NCBI GenBank assembly: GCA_003220265.1
Contig: QHRW01000110.1
Location: 30,395 to 94,394 of the forward strand
DNA length: 64,000 nt
Source of the DNA: Candidatus Rokuibacteriota bacterium
Lineage (GTDB): Bacteria; Methylomirabilota; Methylomirabilia; Rokubacteriales; CSP1-6
Direction of reading: 5' to 3'
Both the position numbers and the translations under genes were made by a program. A model generated the notes under the pieces. It worked only from the letters and a program-made list of their open reading frames with translations. It made no database searches and was not told where the DNA came from. Positions within the stretch are counted from its first letter, which is position 1, and each line of letters opens with the position of its first letter. Positions 5,344 to 53,170 of the stretch are shown here, piece after piece.

Positions 5344-6140
5344 GCTTCCGCCTGCAGGCGCGCCACGAGGTCCGCGCGGTCGCTGATGATGACGTCCACG
5401 CCCCAGCCGGCCAGGCGGCGCATCGTGGCCTCGTCGTTCACGGTGAAGACGCCGAGCGCGATCCCGGCGGCGTGGGCCGCCTCGGCGACAGCCGCGTCGC
5501 AGAGCGTGTAGTGCACACCGAGGAAGTTGGCGCCGGCCTCGCGCGCCCAGGTCACCGTCTCGACCGCCGGCGCGCCGGCCTCCTCGACGTGGTGACGGTC
5601 CACCAGCAGCGCCAGCGGCTGCTTGGGCGACAGCGCGCGCACTTCGGCCAGCACGGCCGGGTTGAACGCGAGGAGGAACGTGCGCTCGGCGATGCCCGCC
5701 TCGCGAAGAAGCTCGAGGATCTTGCGCTCCAGGCCCTCGTAGCGGGCGCCGGGCACGGGCACGAACCGGTCGCCGCGGCGTTCGTAACGCACCGCCGGAC
5801 CCGGCGTCTTTATCTCGACGAGGAGCGCGAGGACCGCCGGCGCCGCCAGCGCCAGCACCTCGCCCAGCGTGGGCACGCAGTCCTCCGTCAGCGCACCGCC
5901 GGGACCACGGAGGCGCGCGCGCCGGAGATCGGCGAGCGTGCAGCGGGCGAGCGGCCCCGTGCCGCTGCTGGTGCGATCCAGCGTGGGATCGTGCATGACG
6001 GCCACCTCGCCGTCGGCCGTGAGGTGGACGTCGCACTCGAGGATCTGGGCGCCGCCGGCGATGGCGTTGCGGAACGCGGTGAGGCTGTTCTCCGGCCATT
6101 GCGCGGCGCCGCCGCGGTGGGCGACGTAGCGGCTGGGCAC
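5340..6140 (-). CDS. ugpQ: glycerophosphodiester phosphodiesterase, cytoplasmic (UgpQ-like)
   Basis: A GDPD domain is present ([21 protein letters not shown]). There is no signal peptide. The GTG start lies 2 nt after the ugpE stop. Confidence 0.8.
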   Translation of the reverse strand: MPSRYVAHRGGAAQWPENSLTAFRNAIAGGAQILECDVHLTADGEVAVMHDPTLDRTSSGTGPLARCTLADLRRARLRGPGGALTEDCVPTLGEVLALAAPAVLALLVEIKTPGPAVRYERRGDRFVPVPGARYEGLERKILELLREAGIAERTFLLAFNPAVLAEVRALSPKQPLALLVDRHHVEEAGAPAVETVTWAREAGANFLGVHYTLCDAAVAEAAHAAGIALGVFTVNDEATMRRLAGWGVDVIISDRADLVARLQAEA

Positions 6141-43988: not shown

Positions 43989-44206
43989 CGCTGGACGGCG
44001 GCGATCAGCGCGGGCAACTCCTTGACCCACTCGTCGATCGGGCGCCCGGCATCGACGGTGATCTCCAGCTTGCCGCTGGGCAGCTTGCGCACCTTGCCGG
44101 GCGTGGCCGGCCCCAGCGGGATCACCAGCATCTCGCGGTGGATGTTGAGCGCGTCGGTCACCGCGAAGATGGCGTCGATCTCCTTCATGGTCACGACCTC
44201 AAGCAT
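43985..44206 (-). CDS. small hypothetical protein (73 aa)
   Basis: In frame with the C-terminal part of track ORF 43985..44467 (MLEVVTMKEIDAIFAVTD...). The upstream Arg/Ser-rich part of that track ORF is a wrong-frame artefact over the Ldh_2 gene. Confidence 0.4.
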   Translation of the reverse strand: MLEVVTMKEIDAIFAVTDALNIHREMLVIPLGPATPGKVRKLPSGKLEITVDAGRPIDEWVKELPALIAAVQR

Positions 44207-45697: not shown

Positions 45698-45737
45698 GCA
45701 CACGAGCCTGGCGTGGTCCTAGGCCAAAGCAGATGCC

Positions 45738-46145
45738 GTGGATTCCCGAATGTCGCGAGCCGTGATGGTCGCCGTCCTCGCCGCTGGCGCATGCGGCCCA
45801 TCCTTCCCTTCGCCGGGGCGCACTGCCAGTCAGCCGTTGCCGCCCCGCGGCGCGCAGCCCGGCCCTGGCCCGGCGCGCGGCGTCTTTCCGCCGAACGCCA
45901 CCCGTGTGATTGCGACCGTGCAGAAGGTCAGCGGCGACACGCTCACGCTCGAGATCCTCGAGGCCCGCCAGGCACGCCCCGACGTGGCCATCGGCCCGGC
46001 GGTGGGCACCATCGAAGCCGTGTCGCGCGGCCTGCTCGACCCTGCGCTGGCCGGCCGGCGCATCGAGGCCGTCATTTCGATCGTCGGCGACACGCTGGCG
46101 AGCCGGTGGCTGATTTCCGAGATACGGCCCCTCCCCGACCGATGA
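45738..46145 (+). CDS. small hypothetical lipoprotein translationally coupled to the giant protein gene
   Basis: Lipobox AVLAAGAC. The stop overlaps the ATG of the downstream gene (ATGA). Confidence 0.55.
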   Translation: MDSRMSRAVMVAVLAAGACGPSFPSPGRTASQPLPPRGAQPGPGPARGVFPPNATRVIATVQKVSGDTLTLEILEARQARPDVAIGPAVGTIEAVSRGLLDPALAGRRIEAVISIVGDTLASRWLISEIRPLPDR

Positions 46146-49100
46146 CCGGCACGAGGAGATCCAGGCTCCTCGCCCTCGTGGCCCTCGCGATGCTCGCCGC
46201 GACGCCGGCGATCGCCGCGACACCGACGACCGTCCGCGTGCACGGGACCGAGACCTGGACACCGACGATGGAGGTGGCCCTCGACGAGGTCGCGATGCTG
46301 TGGACCGGCGAGCCGCGCGGGACGAATACGCCGCCGACGCTGGTGGACGGCACCTCCGTCCTCCGGGCCGGCCGCGAGGCCGCGGCGATCCGGCTCACGG
46401 GCGTGACGACGGTCGCCGACCTGGTGACGCGGGCGCGCGCGCTGCGGGAGGCGAATCCGCGGTGGGAGACGCGGCTCGTGCTCTATGCCTCCGGCGAGAC
46501 GCGCAACGCCCGCAGTCGCCGGCTGCTGACCGAGGAGGTCGCGGTGGTGGCCGAGGACGGCACGGTCACGCGCGAGCACGTCACCGATCCGCTGACAACG
46601 CTGCAGGTGGCGGAGACGATCGCGGCGCGCGGCGGCGTGCAGCGCGTCGAGCCGGTGGCCCAGGCCTCGGACTACTTGCAGGCGCGCCTCACGCGCAAGG
46701 TCGCCAAGCTCAAGCGCCAGGACCAGCCCAGCGAGCGCCAGGAGTTCTTCGCGCTGAAGCGTGTCCCGCCGGGAGAGAGCCGGATTCCCGTCGAGCGCTA
46801 CCTGCAGGCACGCGAGCAGATGAAGCGCATGCCGCTCCACTCGACGGCGGGCGGCGCCGTTCGCCATCCCTCGGCCGCCGAGCTCGGGATCAATTTCGAC
46901 ACCGCCGCCGCGTTCCTCGGGCCGTGGACGCCGCTGGGCCCCGGCAACATCGGCGGCCGCACGCGCGCGCTCGTGGTCGATCCCGCGAATCCCAACACGC
47001 TCTATGCGGGTGGCGTGGCCGGCGGCGTGTGGAAGACGACCAACGGCGGCGGCGCGTGGGTGGCGCTGACCGACACGCTCCTGCCCAACCTGGCCGTGGC
47101 CTCGCTCGACATCGATCCCACGAGCTCCAACATCCTGTACGCCGGCACGGGCGAGGGCGTGTTCAACGGCGACGCGGTCCGGGGCGCCGGCATCTTCAAG
47201 ACCACCGACGGCGGGGTGACCTGGAATCAGCTCGCCACGACCGCCAATGCCGACTTCAACTTCGTGAACAAGCTCAAGGTGCTGTCGACTGGCACCTCGG
47301 TCCTCGCGGCCACGCGGACGGGCCTGTGGCGCTCGATGGACAGCGGCGGCACGTGGACGCAGGTCATCGACGCTTCCAGCATCAACGGCTGCTTCGACAT
47401 CGCGCTGGGCAACACCTACGTGCTCGCCTCGTGTGGCACGTTCGCCCAGGCGATCGTCTCCCGCAGCACCGACGGCGGCGCCAGTTTCGCCACAGCATTC
47501 ACGCCACCCGCCGGCGGCCGCACGTCGCTCGCCATCGCACCGTCGGACGAGAACATCGTCTATGCGCTCGCCTCGAGCATCGAAGGCGGCACGTACAACC
47601 TCGGCCTCAGCGCCGTCTACAAGTCGATCGACGGTGGTATTGAGTGGACACCCACCGTCACCAACACCAGTGCCAACAAGCTGAACACGCTGCTGCTCAC
47701 GAACCCGGTGTACGCGAACTACGCCGAATGCGGCTTCGGCCCATCTGACTCCATCTTCAACCAGGGCTGGTACGACAACGTCATCGCCGTCGATCCCACG
47801 AATCCCAACCGCGTGTGGGCCGGCGGCATCGATTTGTTCCGCTCCAACGACGGCGGTACCACCTGGGCGCTGGCGTCGTTCTGGTGGACGGGCTCGAGCC
47901 CGGGGCCCTTCGCCCATGCCGACCAGCACGCGATCGTCTTCGCGCCGGACTTCGCCACGAGCGGCAAGATGTACGTGGGCAATGACGGCGGTATCTTCCG
48001 GACGCTCAACGGGGCCACCGGCGCCACCACGAGCAACGTCTGCAATCCGGCCGGCGTCGGCATCGTGTGGACGGAGCTGAACAACAACTACGGGGTCACG
48101 CAGTTCTATCACGGCCTGCCCTACCCCGGTCCGAGCGGCGGCGACACCTTCTTCGGCGGCACGCAGGACAACGGCACGATTCGCGGCTCGGTCGGCCTCG
48201 GCATCGACGGCTGGCGCCAGATCCAGGGCGGCGACGGCGGCTACGTGGCGGTCAACCCCACCAACACGAACGTCCTCTACGCGGAGACCACCGGGCTGTC
48301 GATCACGAAGTCGGTCGACGGCGGCGCGCACTTTGTCGACGCCATCGCCGGCATCCTCGACCAGGGCTTCCTGTTCATCACCCCGTTCGTCATGTCGCCG
48401 AACAACCCGCAGATCCTGTGGACGGGTGGCGACCGCATGTGGCGCACCACGAACGGCGCCGCGAGCTGGACGGCGGCCGGCAGCAGTTTCGACTGCGGCT
48501 CGGTGAGCGCCATCGCCGTCGCGCCCCGCGCGGGCACGCTCGAGGACAGCCGCCTCGATCAGGTGGTCCTGGCCGGTACCAGCGGCGGCTGCGTGTTCCG
48601 CACCGCCACCGCGCTCACCGGCACCGCCACGACCAGCTGGACACCGATTCTGTCCGCCGGCGACGGCTACGTCTCCTCGATCGCCTTCGATCCCACCAAT
48701 GCCAGCAACGTCTACGTGACGCACTCGCAGTTCGGCGTCGGCCACGTCTATCGCTCGATCGACGGCGGCCTGACGTTCAGCAACATCGACGGCAGCGGCA
48801 GCGTGCTGCCCGACGTGCCGACCCACACGATCGTGGTGGCCCCCGGCAACCCCAACATCCTCTACGTGGGCACCGACCTCGGCGTGTTCTCGTCCGACGA
48901 CGGCGGCGACAACTGGTCGGTGGAGAACACGGGCTTCGCCAACGTCATCACCGAGGCGCTGGCCGTCGGCCAGGTGGGCAGCGTGGATCACGTGTTCGCG
49001 TTCACCCACGGCCGCGGCGTCTTCCGCGTGGCGCTGCCGCCGTCGATGGCCGACATCGCCGCGACGCAGGCCAGTGTTCCCGCCGGCGCCATCGTGGCGG

Positions 49101-52100
49101 CGGGCGGCTCCGTGATGGTCACCGACACTGTCAAGAACGTCGGCGACGCGACGGCCACCGCGGGCTTCGTGGTGGGCTACGCGCTCGTGCCCGTGAACGG
49201 CGACGGCAGCCTGGGCAGCGACATCCCGCTGAGCGTGACCCGCGCCGTCGGCGTGCTCAGCGCCCAGGGCAGCAGCCAGTCCACCACGGCCGTCGGCCTC
49301 CCCGACACCGTCGCGGTCGGTCCCTACAAGATCCGCGTGCGCGCCGACGTCCTCGGCCAGGTGGTCGAGGATCCGAGCGTCGTCAACAACGAGCGGCTGA
49401 CGAACACGTTCACGGTCACGCGGGTCGATCTCACCGTGACGGCGGCCTCGGCCACGCCGGTCGTGGTGGGCACCGGCCTTCGGGTGTCGGTCGCCAACAC
49501 CGTGAAGAATCTGAGCGCGACGCCGGCGCCCAAGCCGTTCAGCGTCACCTTCCTGCTGTCGCCCGGCACCGGCACCACGCTGGCGGGCGCCGAGATCCCG
49601 CTGGACGTCACCCGCACGGTGACGACACTCGGCGCGAACGCGACGAATGCCGCGACGACCCCCGTCACGATTCCCGACGGCACCACGCCCGGGACGTACC
49701 GCATCTTCGTGATCGTCGATCCCGAGAACGCGATCGTCGAGAGCAACGAGAGCAACAACGCCCTGGCGAGCAACACCCTCACGATCGGCCGGGCCGACCT
49801 GGCGCCGCAGGCGGTGACGTTCACGCCGGCGGCGACCGGCAGCGCGACGGCGATCAGCGTGACGCACACCGTCCGCAACGTGGCGGCGGGGCCGACAGCG
49901 GGCACCGCGCCGCCGTCCGTCTCCGGCGTCTACCTCTCGACCGACACGACGCTGGCCTCGGCGGTGGCGCAGCTCGGCACCGTGAACATTCCGGCGCTCG
50001 CCGTGGGCGCCTCCAGCACGCAGACCAAGACGTTCACGATCCCGGCGGGGCCGCCGGGCGCGTTCTTCGTCGTCGTCAGGGCCGACGACGCGGGCGCCAT
50101 CACGGAGGCGGGCGAGGCCAACAACGTCGCGGCCAGTGCGACGCGGCTGCTGGTCGGTCCCGACTTGCTGGTGACGGCGGCCACCGCCACGCCGGCCTTC
50201 GTGACACCGGGCAGCACCGTGGCCGTCGCCAGCACGGTGAAGAACCAGGGCATCGCCGCCCCGACGAGCTTCGGCGTCTCGTTCGCGCTGGTCCCGACGA
50301 CCGATCTCAGTGGCGCCTCCGACATCCCGCTCGCCGTCACGCGCACGGTGGCGGGCCTGGGCGCCGGCGCATCGAGCTCGACCCCCGCGAACGTCGTGAT
50401 CCCCACGAGCGTCGGCCTCGGCCAGTACCGGATCCGTGTGATCGTCGATTCCGGCAACGCCGTCAACGAGGCGGACGAGACGAACAACCAGCGCCTCACG
50501 ACGTCGGTCGTGACGGTCACGCGGCCGGACCTGATCGTGCCGACCGTCACCGCGCCCGTGGCCGCCGCCCCCGGCACGCCGTTCGCGGTCACCAACACCG
50601 TCAAGAACAACAGCAGCGTCGCGGCCGGCCCCTTCAAGGTGGCGTTCTATCTGTCGACCGACACGCTCTTCGACGGCGCCGATATCCCGATCAGTGTCAG
50701 CCGCACCGTCACCACGCTGGCCGCCAACGGCGTCAGCACGGCCACGAACATGGTGACGATCCCGCCCGGCACGCCGATCGGCGTCTATCGGATCCTCGTC
50801 GTCGCCGACCCGCTCAACCAGGTCGTGGAGCTGGACGAGAACAACAACACCGGAGTCAGCGGGCCGGTCGTCCTCGGCCCCGATCTCGTCGTCACCGCGG
50901 CCACCGTGACGCCGACCACCGTGGCGCCCGGCGGCAGGATTTCCGTCGCGAACACCATCAAGAACCAGGGCGTCACGGCGGCCACCGCGTCGTCGCTCGT
51001 CGGCTTCTTCCTGTCGACTGATGCGGTCCTGGACGTCGCCGATGTCCCCCTCGGCCCCAGCCGGACCGTCGTGCCACTGGGCGCCGGCCTCAGCAGCGCC
51101 GGCACGAGCCCGCTGACGATTCCGCCAGGCACCGTGCCCGGCAGCTATCGCATCCTGGTCGTGGCGGACGTCGGTAACACGGTCACCGAAGGCAACGAAG
51201 CCAACAACGTGCTCGCGACGGTGCCGATCACGGTGGTGCTCCCGGATCTGATCGTCACCACCGTCACCGCGCCGGCTGCCGTCGCCGCGGGCACGCCGTT
51301 CGCCGTCACCAACACCGTCAAGAACAACAGCGGCGTGCTGGCCCCCGGGCCGTTCAGCGTGGCGTTCTTCCTGTCGACCGACACGACCTTCGATGGCGGA
51401 GACATCCCGCTCGGTGCCACGCGGACGGTCGCGTCGCTCGGGCCCAACGCGCTGAACACCGCCTCCACCCCGCTGACCATCCCGGTCGGCACGCCGCCCG
51501 GCGTCTATCGCATCCTGGTAGCGGCCGACGCGACCAACATCGTCGTGGAGACCAGCAACCTCAACAACGTCGGGACCAGCGCGGCCGTCACCGTCGGACC
51601 CGATCTCGTCATCTCGCCGCTGACCGTGCCCGCGCTCATCGCCGGACGCACGGGCGTCGGCATCGCGAACACCGTGAAGAACAACGGGGCGGCGGCCGCC
51701 ACGGCCGGCGCCTTCGGCGTCGGCTTGTACTTCTCCAGCACCAGCACAACGAATACGACGGGCGACACGCTGGTGGGCAACCGCCCGGTGACCGGCCTGG
51801 CCGGCGGCGGCACCTCCTCGGTGCCGGTCACGATCACCGTGCCGTCCACGCCGGGGAACTTCTTCCTCAAGGCGTTCGCGGACCACACCAACCTGGTGGT
51901 CGAGGCCGACGAGAGCAACAACGTGACGGTGAAGCCGGTCGCCGTCGTGCCCGACCTGGTGCGGACGAACGTCCTCGCGAACGCCACGTTCAAGATCACG
52001 CCGGACTCGCCGACCTGCCTGGTGGGGTCCACCGGCGGCGGCCAGGCGATCGAGACGATCACGACCCAGACCGGCGGCTCCTTCAGCGGCGGCAAGATCA

Positions 52101-53170
52101 CGTTCCACGACGCCGAGGGCGGCTCGGACACCATCAACTTCAGCGGCACGATCACCCCGGCCGGGACCGTCAGCGGCACGTTCACCCTCAGCCGCGTGGG
52201 CGGCGGCGGCGGCAGCGCGGGCGGCACCTTCACGGGAAGCGCGGGCGTCGATGCTTCACGCTCGGCGGGCTCTCTGTCGCTCGAGTTCACGGGGAGGTCC
52301 ACGGCCGGCATCGGCAGCTGCGCCGTGACCGCCCTGGTCACTGACGGGACCGGATCGCTGACGAACCCCAGCGTCGTGCCGGCCTCGCTCACGGTCGACG
52401 AGCGCAGCAGCGTGACGGTCACCTTCGGCACGAGCACGCCGTGGCCGGCTGACGGCCTTCTGAGGATCACGTTCCCCGCCGGCTTCGGCCTCGTCGGCGG
52501 CTCCGACGTCTTCAGCGCCACCGGTCCCGACGGTTCGTTCTTCACCTCCACGTCCGGCCAGACGCTGACGCTTCTGCGGCTCGGCGACGGCACCACGTTC
52601 AGCGGAAACGCGTCGTTCACGTTCGACGGAAGTTTTGGGGGAATCCTCAATCCCGTCGCCTTCGGTCCCACCGGAACCTTCCTGCTCAGGACGACCACGG
52701 CGGAGGGCATCGTCGTCGACTCGGAGCGCTTCCTCATCGACTCCGGAACGGCCCCATCCGTCACGCTCGAGCCCGGCGCGATCACGAGCGCCGGCGTGAC
52801 GCCGGCCTCGCTCGTGGCGGGTGCGGTCGGCAACGTCACCGTCAACTTCACCACCACGCACATCTGGCCCCCTGACGGCACGCTTCGGATCGACTTCCCC
52901 GCCGGCTTCGACGTCTCGAGCGCCTCGTTCGTTGGCACCTCGTTCGGTCCGATCGGGACGTTCTCCCTCGCCGTTTCCGGCCAGACCGTGACCCTGACGC
53001 GAATCGGCGGCGGCGACTTGCCGTTCGGGGGAAGCGCCTCCCTCACCCTGGACGGAGTCCAGAATCCCGCGACCTCCGGGACGACTGGCAGCTTCTCGCT
53101 GACGACGGCAACGGCCACCGCCGGCGCGATCGACATCGGGACGGCCCCGGGAGTCACGATCGTCCCCTGA
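46142..53170 (+). CDS. giant secreted protein (2342 aa): BNR/Asp-box beta-propeller region + 8 tandem CARDB domains + 2 C-terminal repeats
   Basis: Signal peptide MTGTRRSRLLALVALAMLAATPAIA. At least ten Asp-box motifs (S/T-x-D-G-G-x-T/S-W/F, e.g. WKTTNGGGAW, FKTTDGGVTW, YRSIDGGLTF). Repeated units of about 120 aa carry the CARDB signature (PDLVVTA.T..P..V.PG....V..TVKNQG...A..F.V.F.LSTD.....D..L...R.V..L......S.....TIP..T..G.YRI.V.AD..N.V.E..E.NN). The C-terminal repeats are of the LRITFPAGFG / LRIDFPAGFD type. Confidence 0.9.
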   Translation: MTGTRRSRLLALVALAMLAATPAIAATPTTVRVHGTETWTPTMEVALDEVAMLWTGEPRGTNTPPTLVDGTSVLRAGREAAAIRLTGVTTVADLVTRARALREANPRWETRLVLYASGETRNARSRRLLTEEVAVVAEDGTVTREHVTDPLTTLQVAETIAARGGVQRVEPVAQASDYLQARLTRKVAKLKRQDQPSERQEFFALKRVPPGESRIPVERYLQAREQMKRMPLHSTAGGAVRHPSAAELGINFDTAAAFLGPWTPLGPGNIGGRTRALVVDPANPNTLYAGGVAGGVWKTTNGGGAWVALTDTLLPNLAVASLDIDPTSSNILYAGTGEGVFNGDAVRGAGIFKTTDGGVTWNQLATTANADFNFVNKLKVLSTGTSVLAATRTGLWRSMDSGGTWTQVIDASSINGCFDIALGNTYVLASCGTFAQAIVSRSTDGGASFATAFTPPAGGRTSLAIAPSDENIVYALASSIEGGTYNLGLSAVYKSIDGGIEWTPTVTNTSANKLNTLLLTNPVYANYAECGFGPSDSIFNQGWYDNVIAVDPTNPNRVWAGGIDLFRSNDGGTTWALASFWWTGSSPGPFAHADQHAIVFAPDFATSGKMYVGNDGGIFRTLNGATGATTSNVCNPAGVGIVWTELNNNYGVTQFYHGLPYPGPSGGDTFFGGTQDNGTIRGSVGLGIDGWRQIQGGDGGYVAVNPTNTNVLYAETTGLSITKSVDGGAHFVDAIAGILDQGFLFITPFVMSPNNPQILWTGGDRMWRTTNGAASWTAAGSSFDCGSVSAIAVAPRAGTLEDSRLDQVVLAGTSGGCVFRTATALTGTATTSWTPILSAGDGYVSSIAFDPTNASNVYVTHSQFGVGHVYRSIDGGLTFSNIDGSGSVLPDVPTHTIVVAPGNPNILYVGTDLGVFSSDDGGDNWSVENTGFANVITEALAVGQVGSVDHVFAFTHGRGVFRVALPPSMADIAATQASVPAGAIVAAGGSVMVTDTVKNVGDATATAGFVVGYALVPVNGDGSLGSDIPLSVTRAVGVLSAQGSSQSTTAVGLPDTVAVGPYKIRVRADVLGQVVEDPSVVNNERLTNTFTVTRVDLTVTAASATPVVVGTGLRVSVANTVKNLSATPAPKPFSVTFLLSPGTGTTLAGAEIPLDVTRTVTTLGANATNAATTPVTIPDGTTPGTYRIFVIVDPENAIVESNESNNALASNTLTIGRADLAPQAVTFTPAATGSATAISVTHTVRNVAAGPTAGTAPPSVSGVYLSTDTTLASAVAQLGTVNIPALAVGASSTQTKTFTIPAGPPGAFFVVVRADDAGAITEAGEANNVAASATRLLVGPDLLVTAATATPAFVTPGSTVAVASTVKNQGIAAPTSFGVSFALVPTTDLSGASDIPLAVTRTVAGLGAGASSSTPANVVIPTSVGLGQYRIRVIVDSGNAVNEADETNNQRLTTSVVTVTRPDLIVPTVTAPVAAAPGTPFAVTNTVKNNSSVAAGPFKVAFYLSTDTLFDGADIPISVSRTVTTLAANGVSTATNMVTIPPGTPIGVYRILVVADPLNQVVELDENNNTGVSGPVVLGPDLVVTAATVTPTTVAPGGRISVANTIKNQGVTAATASSLVGFFLSTDAVLDVADVPLGPSRTVVPLGAGLSSAGTSPLTIPPGTVPGSYRILVVADVGNTVTEGNEANNVLATVPITVVLPDLIVTTVTAPAAVAAGTPFAVTNTVKNNSGVLAPGPFSVAFFLSTDTTFDGGDIPLGATRTVASLGPNALNTASTPLTIPVGTPPGVYRILVAADATNIVVETSNLNNVGTSAAVTVGPDLVISPLTVPALIAGRTGVGIANTVKNNGAAAATAGAFGVGLYFSSTSTTNTTGDTLVGNRPVTGLAGGGTSSVPVTITVPSTPGNFFLKAFADHTNLVVEADESNNVTVKPVAVVPDLVRTNVLANATFKITPDSPTCLVGSTGGGQAIETITTQTGGSFSGGKITFHDAEGGSDTINFSGTITPAGTVSGTFTLSRVGGGGGSAGGTFTGSAGVDASRSAGSLSLEFTGRSTAGIGSCAVTALVTDGTGSLTNPSVVPASLTVDERSSVTVTFGTSTPWPADGLLRITFPAGFGLVGGSDVFSATGPDGSFFTSTSGQTLTLLRLGDGTTFSGNASFTFDGSFGGILNPVAFGPTGTFLLRTTTAEGIVVDSERFLIDSGTAPSVTLEPGAITSAGVTPASLVAGAVGNVTVNFTTTHIWPPDGTLRIDFPAGFDVSSASFVGTSFGPIGTFSLAVSGQTVTLTRIGGGDLPFGGSASLTLDGVQNPATSGTTGSFSLTTATATAGAIDIGTAPGVTIVP
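49040..51960 (+). repeat. coding tandem repeat array: 8 CARDB-domain units, period about 360-370 bp
   Basis: The PDL(V/I)V anchors recur at about 49423, 49795, 50158, 50527, 50878, 51244, 51601 and 51952. Confidence 0.8.

Follow-up and report, generated by a model that had tools for sequence, protein, structure and literature searches.

A predicted giant exoprotein with a GH74-like propeller head and a small OB-fold partner encoded on a Candidatus Rokuibacteriota contig

The GH74 xyloglucanases and OXG-RCBH, represented by Xgh74A (PDB entries 2CN2 and 2CN3) and by PoGH74 from Paenibacillus odorifer (6MGJ), are tandem seven-bladed Asp-box propellers with a cleft between them, whereas the sortilin/Vps10 receptors carry their Asp-box blades in one 10-bladed propeller and have a 10CC module. 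The I9-type pro-domains of S8 subtilases and kexins, intramolecular chaperones and inhibitors, are compact α/β units at the N-terminus, right after the signal peptide, and the periplasmic OB-fold proteins CusF, the C-terminal domain of SilB and BOF/YgiW are small exported five-stranded barrels. Elements that recall these systems are encoded by two adjacent genes in the window analysed here, a stretch of 64,000 nucleotides from a Candidatus Rokuibacteriota bacterium (GenBank assembly GCA_003220265.1, contig QHRW01000110.1, positions 30,395 to 94,394). The larger gene encodes a giant protein of 2342 residues, in which a signal peptide, an N-terminal domain (N-domain), a helical linker, a 7+7-bladed propeller head, eight CARDB domains, a β-type domain and two C-terminal repeats follow one another, and the smaller gene, directly upstream, encodes a small OB-fold protein, the partner. 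We tentatively favour the view that the two genes form one unit, in which an exported giant would combine a propeller as working head with a spacer stalk and an attachment tail, and in which the partner would be a small envelope protein acting on the N-domain. Related loci and proteins are referred to below by L and P numbers.

Because the GC content of the window, about 71%, makes long spurious open reading frames (ORFs) common, frames were judged by the GC content at third codon positions (GC3). The ORF of the giant is uninterrupted and has a GC3 of 0.94, whereas its in-frame extension upstream to position 45713 has a GC3 of only 0.60 and is therefore regarded as non-coding, which places the start of the giant at the ATG at 46142; at about this position the coding signal changes frame, the partner gene having a GC3 of 0.86 in its own (+1) frame. 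The TGA of the partner gene overlaps the ATG of the giant as ATGA (46142–46145). An earlier reading made without database searches, here called the sequence-only reading, had proposed a giant signal-peptide protein of 2342 residues, which is confirmed, and its coordinates were off by no more than a few tens of bases. It had also proposed that a lipoprotein gene of 135 residues overlaps the start of the giant; the overlap stands, while the product has 131 residues and its lipobox Cys is not universal. It had further taken the overlap to imply co-expression. The gene order is kept in relatives, but with gaps of 17–29 bp, so that co-transcription is conserved and the coupling by ATGA overlap is specific to the window lineage. 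Co-expression of the two genes is the claim that we make with the greatest confidence, followed in descending order by a head with a non-GH74 site, the CARDB array as a spacer, binding of the OB protein to the N-domain and the C-terminal repeats as an attachment module.

No Shine–Dalgarno-like purine run is seen before the ATG of the giant (…ccctccccgaccgATG) or before that of the partner gene, an absence that is consistent with overlap coupling in the window, the relatives having the spacers given above. Around the two-gene unit, scanning revealed neither a sigma-70-like promoter nor a credible terminator, and across the entire window there was no match to Rfam and no tRNA. Judged from its sequence, the giant is predicted to be a Sec-exported modular exoprotein of about 235 kDa. 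Export by the twin-arginine translocation pathway, suggested by the string TRRSRLL, was considered and rejected, as the motif is imperfect and the equivalent signal peptide of the closest orthologue, P0023, lacks the RR pair.

The head contains ten Asp-boxes of the form S/T-x-D/N-x-G-x-x-W/F (at residues 299, 354, 398, 442, 495, 568, 724, 769, 872 and 918, with the motifs falling within residues 299–925), in line with the at least ten counted earlier. The Pfam profiles CARDB and Sortilin-Vps10 both score above their cut-offs in the giant, as expected of the domains named from the sequence; the Sortilin-Vps10 (PF15902) match is partial and covers profile positions 26–121 of 446 (46.5 bits against a cut-off of 33, E-value 3e-12). 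An AlphaFold2 (AF2) model of the head, built on a 58-member alignment, has a mean predicted local distance difference test score (pLDDT) of 85. Its best Foldseek matches in the PDB are all GH74 xyloglucanases, which match at full length with E-values of 6e-27 to 5e-21, identities of 16–19% and template-modelling (TM) scores on the target of 0.61–0.71; 4LGN, 6MGJ and 2CN2, among others, reach E-values of about 1e-26 and TM scores of 0.65–0.71 over about 800 columns. Sortilin structures are absent from the top 50. Because the GH74 fold matches are full length and sortilin lies outside the top 50, the head is, as modelled, a GH74-like tandem 7+7 propeller and not a 10-bladed Vps10 domain, despite its Pfam label. 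The profile of the family to which the head belongs matches GH74 sequences to an E-value of 2e-21, mainly in the first three blades and in scattered Asp-boxes, and matches sortilin at about 1e-4.

These matches could be taken to mean that the giant is a canonical secreted enzyme of the GH74 type, an endo-β-1,4-glucanase or xyloglucanase to which Ig-like spacers and a carbohydrate-binding tail have been joined, since no structures match the head as a whole better than those of GH74 enzymes, which are the best PDB profile matches as well, and the NCBIfam model 'F510_1955 family glycosylhydrolase' also points this way, with a weak score of 92 that is far under its cut-off of 175. Comparing 2cn2 with 2cn3 (D70A) locates the catalytic base of GH74, which is D70 in Xgh74A of C. 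thermocellum and D60 in PoGH74. The segments YARADIGG of 2cn2 and YARAAIGG of 2cn3 align with YAGGVAGG of the head at high posterior probability, which places V292 of the head in the column of the catalytic-base Asp; this column holds Val in at least 90% of the family. The catalytic acid in the second propeller, D480 of CtXgh74A and D465 of OXG-RCBH, lies in a region that the sequence alignment does not reach; by analogy of the motif GNDGG, N614 would occupy the Asp position, with the invariant D615 beside it. Because the catalytic-base Asp is replaced by a conserved Val, we conclude that the head is built on a GH74-like scaffold but stands outside canonical GH74. Of the folds with which the sequence-only reading had suggested comparing the propeller, that of GH74 is thus found, without the GH74 catalytic base. 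A canonical GH74 enzyme also sits poorly with the low identity and with an alignment limited to about the three first blades and scattered Asp-boxes, with a HADQH–GTQDNG region, the most strongly conserved core of the family, for which a PDB sequence search finds no counterpart, and with a window neighbourhood in which no carbohydrate-active enzyme gene shares an operon with the giant, and it appears improbable.

The first 966 residues of the giant have more than 4800 homologues, most of them secreted and about 840 residues long, which are found in Acidobacteriota, Binatia, Rokubacteria/Methylomirabilota, Gammaproteobacteria and other groups and are annotated at best as 'photosystem II stability/assembly factor-like'. 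Homologues are 50–56% identical to the window head over the propeller and helical leader, with about 80% of the 966-residue query covered. The helical linker is common to the whole family (consensus RYD.P.EAQEF.R.KR.P.G...VPVERYL.ALE.M, alignment A1), and many members carry variable C-terminal additions such as BACON, Calx-beta, PKD, FN3 or CARDB domains. More than 100 columns are invariant in the 58-member alignment, and the invariant polar motifs are GGRTR (271–275), GTGEG (335–339), HADQH (592–596), N-D615-GG, GGTQDNGT (672–679) and THGRG (955–959). Conservation across phyla, together with these polar residues, is more suggestive of an enzyme, or of a ligand site under strong constraint, than of a fast-evolving adhesin tip.

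The same conservation bears on the possibility, raised in the sequence-only reading, that the giant is a non-enzymatic surface adhesin or glycan-binding fibril, in which the propeller or the repeats would bind, the CARDB domains would form the stalk and the lipoprotein would be the membrane anchor. A signal peptide with, behind it, a long run of Ig-like domains that vary in number between orthologues would suit such a protein, as would a lipoprotein partner with a Pro-rich tether, and no catalytic family is assigned to the giant by Pfam or NCBIfam. Yet the conservation of the head across phyla far exceeds what is usual for adhesin tips, most members of the family are the stalkless proteins of about 840 residues, the lipobox Cys of the partner is not universal and the surface-anchor signals listed further below were not detected, so that we hold the adhesin reading to be doubtful. 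Literature searches on Sortilin-Vps10 with CARDB, GH74/BNR/Vps10, COG4447, DUF2808 and CARDB/Rokubacteria returned no characterisation of these modules, and no propeller-family member with a demonstrated function was found in the searchable literature; one general review of Asp-box propellers was useful (PMC2716378).

Members of the family without an N-domain also occur as adjacent tandem paralogues, of 841 and 830 residues in L031:3001-8113 and of 841 and 834 residues in L033:387-5505, which suggests local gene duplication. Another member, P0025 (1043 residues, ENA), bears a different N-terminal extension (…SLRVIVEVLP…REAIAQAQDRVLQEL…RVLRRFATIPFLGL) that resembles classical subtilase pro-peptides and suggests that pro-domain-like units were recruited to the propeller family more than once.

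The region of about 260 residues that had been described in front of the propeller is present, and it resolves into the discrete N-domain and the helical linker. Most members of the propeller family lack the N-domain, and those of the subset that bears it form three basal groups in a neighbour-joining tree of the propeller region. Its invariant core reads LALDE..W ... ANP ... V.Y..G....RR (alignment A3); it has no Pfam match, even at E-values of up to 5–10, and its profile has no match among PDB sequences. A metagenome scan with this profile found 13 loci. At one of these, L024:4842-8188 (JGI Ga0114945_10000184), the N-domain is a stand-alone secreted ORF of about 217 residues that ends at 5495, directly ahead of a gene for an S8 subtilase; this protease carries a separate signal peptide as well as proprotein-convertase P-domain, Y_Y_Y and FN3 domains. 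By analogy of position, this placement is what would be expected of a pro-domain- or inhibitor-like unit.

The partner has no match in Pfam, NCBIfam or PDB sequences, even at E-values of up to 5–10 in the first two. In the AF2 model residues 1–44 are disordered and residues 45–128 form a five-stranded barrel with a pLDDT above 90, and the top 30 or so Foldseek matches of the barrel in the PDB are all OB domains (the best being RPA32/14, the SilB C-terminal domain and PriB), with probabilities of 0.98–1.0, E-values of only about 1e-2 and TM scores of 0.4–0.66. The family is small: 22 homologues were found in an index of 5.8 billion proteins, and a full profile search found 102 cluster representatives in 1.84 billion. 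The signal peptide ends in a lipobox-like LAAGA-C, and MSRAVMVAVLAAGA-C15 conforms to a permissive lipobox pattern. Among 21 close homologues, 16 keep this Cys and five (P0003, P0016, P0018, P0019 and P0022) have another residue in its place; of the six distant homologues examined, five keep it (L014, L025, L027, L028 and L029) and L030 does not. Homologues without it have an ordinary signal peptide. The partner is thus predicted to be usually lipid-anchored, anchoring being common and not defining. The conserved residues are N49, R52, T66, G113 and W120; a CusF-like metal-chaperone role was considered and rejected, given the absence of any conserved Met, His or Cys. The first OB strand is immediately preceded (window 45750–45900, alignment A2) by a motif N49-A/G-T/S-R-V, in which N49 is invariant and the N-x-S/T pattern is kept in homologues near and far (NATRV, NGSRV, NASRV); this motif might serve as a structural cap or as a sequon for glycosylation.

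At least seven distinct loci have the partner gene immediately before a propeller gene with an N-domain, and five of these loci lie outside the syntenic group of the window. Within that group (L001–L011, L016, L018, L019 and L021), the giant always follows on contigs that have a close partner-gene homologue and enough sequence, with a gap of 17–24 bp and no overlap; because all of these loci share the permease and Ldh_2 synteny, they alone show only orthology. The partner gene is also upstream in the non-syntenic loci L014/15, L025, L027, L028, L029 and L030. The informative proteins here have 1131–1138 residues, comprising an N-domain, a propeller and one Ig-like domain; they match the window head at no more than about 49% identity and are encoded in markedly different surroundings. 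In L014/15 and L027–L030, a gene 20–30 bp upstream encodes a diverged protein of the partner family, recognized by hidden Markov model (HMM) with E-values of 1e-18 to 1e-52. The neighbours are uvrB, uvrC and an HNH gene in L014/15 and a luciferase-like monooxygenase and a TetR gene in L029, while L027, L028 and L030 are further separate contigs. In three of three controls whose propeller genes have no N-domain (L031–L033), the partner gene is absent upstream. Of the suggestion in the sequence-only reading that the lipoprotein is a distinctive partner, the pairing survives, since it recurs in L014/15 and L027–L030 and is absent beside members without an N-domain, and the lipid anchoring is qualified as common but not defining. 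From these gene neighbourhoods we read the pairing as a genuine, non-obligatory functional partnership that tracks the N-domain. The locus L025:1-6809 (JGI Ga0209641_10011259), tried as a case of an N-domain without a propeller, was rejected as probably chimeric: its first 2 kb or so are high-GC, with the partner gene and an N-domain ORF that ends early, and the remainder is low-GC with recA, recX and RNase Y-type genes.

In the presumed stalk, exactly eight CARDB units are delimited by self-BLAST and a self-built HMM, the number proposed earlier for 49040–51960, and the match to Pfam CARDB (PF07705) is strong (272.6 bits against a cut-off of 22.7, E-value 1.6e-82). The units are 26–65% identical in protein and 43–74% in DNA, units 5 and 7 being the closest pair, and Tandem Repeats Finder detects no DNA tandem array. 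While the window has eight units, there are at least 11 in L004, where the gene is cut by the contig end, and 12 in L001 and L003, the architecture of these three being otherwise identical to that of the window giant. The variable number is consistent with the CARDB array being a spacer of freely varying length. An origin of the ORF or its repeat array as an assembly or annotation artefact, through collapsed or expanded repeats or a chimeric contig, could be suspected of repetitive, high-GC sequence of metagenomic type, the more so as the related contig L025 looks chimeric. It is opposed by the uninterrupted frame with its high GC3, by repeat units that have diverged in DNA without forming a tandem array, and by the same module order in independent samples and assemblies (L001/L003, P0144, L004 and L010), and the artefact, which had been raised as a way in which the sequence-only reading might fail, is highly improbable.

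The Gly/Thr-rich domain that follows the stalk (residues 1933–2064) has no internal repeat partner and no Pfam match. Behind it, the two homologous repeats expected at about 52320–53165 are found, with the consensus V.PASL.AGA.GNVTV.FTT...WP..G.L.I.FPAGF ... GQTVTLTR ... NP..SGTTG.F.L.T ... ID.GTAPGVTI. Only nine proteins homologous to them were found in 5.8 billion. The unit occurs in two to five copies in P0145, P0146, P0150 and P0151; it follows CARDB domains in P0144 and P0145 and makes up almost the whole secreted protein in P0146 and P0150. P0146 passes the Pfam threshold for DUF2808 (PF10989; 29.3 against 25.3 bits) and is the sole homologue to do so. The C-terminal 414 residues of the window protein have no DUF2808 match at E-values of up to 5, and of isolated repeat units two of 19 match it, at 0.0075 or weaker. 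The repeats are thus a rare module whose relationship to DUF2808 is distant at best; no function for DUF2808 was found in the literature, and neither the C-terminal region nor the repeat profile has a PDB sequence match. P0146 itself (L012:8001-9683) is a secreted protein of 560 residues with four tandem copies of about 135 residues of the terminal repeat of the giant, and genes for T2SSE/PilB-like ATPases lie about 5 kb from its gene on the opposite strand. The giant ends in …IDIGTAPGVTIVP, without a tail of hydrophobic or basic residues.

A structural envelope or S-layer-like component, in which DUF2808-like repeats would self-assemble or bind the envelope and the remainder would decorate the surface, might be seen in the proteins made almost wholly of this repeat (P0146, with its four copies, and P0150) and in the variable copy number, but with about nine homologous proteins only, no match to an S-layer family and a repeat that is a minor part of the giant, we give it little probability.

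Table 1. Positions of the two genes and of the parts of their products in the window
Feature	Position (nt)	Strand	Residues	Description
Small partner gene	45750-46145	+	131 residues	ATG at 45750 (alternative GTG at 45738)
Parts of the small protein	45750-46145	+	Cys15; 16-44; 45-128	Lipobox signal peptide (Cys15); Pro-rich flexible tether, about 30 residues long (16-44); OB-fold (45-128, nt 45882-46133)
Giant gene	46142-53170	+	2342 residues	ATG at 46142, stop at 53168-53170; single clean ORF
Signal peptide of the giant	46142-46219	+	1-26	MTGTRRSRLLALVALAMLAATPAIA; predicted Sec type, then A after the cleavage site
N-domain	46229-46711	+	30-190	Compact α/β unit (predicted); AF2 pLDDT about 85
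Helical linker	46712-46921	+	191-260	AF2 helices at 196-207 and 217-229
Head	46922-49033	+	261-964	Predicted GH74-like tandem seven-bladed Asp-box β-propeller; 10 Asp-boxes
CARDB array	49043-51937	+	968-1932	Eight tandem Ig-like units of about 120 residues each; presumed stalk
Gly/Thr-rich β-type domain	51938-52333	+	1933-2064	Two Cys; kept in P0144 and L001
C-terminal repeats	52334-53167	+	2065-2205, 2206-2342	About 140 residues each; 46% identical, E-value 2e-25 (self-comparison, 2065-2211 with 2206-2342)

In the reading that we favour, the propeller would be the working head of a widespread and strongly conserved family, and the invariant HADQH, NDGG, GTQDNG, GGRTR and THGRG motifs would form a fixed active or ligand site distinct from that of GH74. 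The CARDB array would act as a spacer that changes length between orthologues, and the C-terminal repeats would be a lineage-restricted module for binding or attachment to a surface or substrate. The OB partner would act on the N-domain; in this way it may chaperone the head during or after export, or hold, tether or mask it at the membrane. The N-domain is proposed as its target because the partner gene tracks the N-domain and not the propeller, and because the N-domain is also found next to an S8 protease, a position expected of a unit resembling a pro-domain or inhibitor.

Several points weigh against this reading. The evidence that links the OB protein to the N-domain is all of gene neighbourhood, and three genes that bear the N-domain (L017, L026 and L034) have no partner gene upstream, nor has the N-domain/S8 pair in L024, for which reason the partner gene is regarded as non-obligatory. 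The bearers of the N-domain are basal in the propeller tree, and the pairing may partly reflect shared descent and not repeated selection; the association is perhaps ancient rather than repeatedly assembled, and either way it has survived extensive genome rearrangement. The pro-domain analogy comes from the single locus L024, and the N-domain has no sequence match to I9-type pro-peptides. The putative active site of the head is deduced from conservation. Lastly, Pfam and NCBIfam searches of the whole giant protein revealed no outer-membrane route or anchor signal, whether PEP-CTERM, a T9SS C-terminal domain, an autotransporter barrel or LPXTG; the sole PorU-related match is sub-threshold (16.9 bits) and lies inside a CARDB unit.

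A bolder version, which we consider unlikely, would have the N-domain and the OB (lipo)protein form an undescribed two-part module for controlling or tethering exported proteins in soil bacteria of the Methylomirabilota and Binatia type, a trans-acting pair of pro-domain and keeper by which a secreted enzyme would be kept inactive, or bound to the membrane, until its release, with the propeller family of more than 4800 members so regulated being a new enzyme class that has a HADQH/NDGG/GTQDNG active site on a GH74-like scaffold.

The genes around the unit are metabolic and transport genes unrelated to the giant. Upstream, on the opposite strand, are an Ldh_2-family dehydrogenase and an amino-acid permease, and downstream a family III CoA-transferase begins 53 bp past the stop of the giant. 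The window also contains an MlaC gene, a sign that the organism is diderm. Among relatives, the closest bear the labels Candidatus Binatia and Candidatus Methylomirabilota. In the Binatia relative, P0023 (HTO12128.1), the head is 68–70% identical and the synteny with the window reaches the GH3, SSF, MlaC, permease and Ldh_2 genes; Methylomirabilota is represented by the contig JBKPRI010000371 of a metagenome-assembled genome (53% identical) and by P0154. Exact copies of the window proteins are absent from the public protein collection searched. Every syntenic relative has a conserved 73-residue ORF, without a Pfam match, which is called between the amino-acid permease and Ldh_2 genes and overlaps both slightly, by a few bases (L001:1631-1852, L004:520-741, L007:2193-2414 and L011:6095-6316); the corresponding stretch of the window is 44030–44200.

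The giant is real and modestly novel; large surface or secreted proteins of its kind are common, and its main modules are ordinary. Multi-domain BNR-propeller/CARDB proteins are commonplace, large secreted proteins with BNR propellers and Ig-like domains being common in soil metagenomes and routinely left 'hypothetical', and nothing found here contradicts current knowledge. What is new is that the N-domain and the OB partner, two families without a database description, travel together, that the GH74 catalytic base is lost in a huge conserved family, and that the terminal repeat is rare. A function for the propeller family would annotate thousands of proteins. The occurrence of a rare OB-fold family and the N-domain as neighbours in several unrelated contexts provides a concrete protein–protein hypothesis, and the stalk, which varies between eight and 12 CARDB units, offers a natural experiment on how a spacer functions.

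In comparison with known systems, the head shares with the GH74 enzymes, its best structural matches over some 700 residues, the tandem seven-bladed architecture, and the first three blades are recognizably homologous in sequence, whereas it has Val in place of the base Asp and a HADQH/NDGG/GTQDNG core of its own, and the giant adds an N-domain, a CARDB stalk and a novel tail. It is a bona fide member of the family of about 840 residues annotated as 'photosystem II stability/assembly factor-like' or Sortilin-Vps10, with which it has all invariant motifs in common, whereas the giant belongs to the minority with an N-domain and a partner gene and has an unusually long extension of eight CARDB domains, a β-type domain and two repeats. 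With the sortilin/Vps10 receptors it shares Asp-box blades and a Pfam match above the gathering score, whereas it is predicted to form two seven-bladed propellers without the 10CC module. The N-domain resembles the pro-domains of S8 subtilases and kexins in its predicted compact α/β form, in its position after the signal peptide and, in L024, in being encoded immediately before an S8/P-domain protease gene, whereas it has no sequence match to Inhibitor_I9 and is fused to the propeller in the giant, its L024 homologue being a separate gene with a signal peptide. Finally, the partner is, like CusF, SilB and BOF/YgiW, a small exported protein with a predicted five-stranded OB barrel, and the SilB C-terminal domain is among its best fold matches (TM score of 0.66 on the target), whereas it lacks the conserved Met/His/Cys metal site, has no sequence similarity to either family, is usually a predicted lipoprotein with a Pro-rich tether and belongs to a rare family of 102 representatives.

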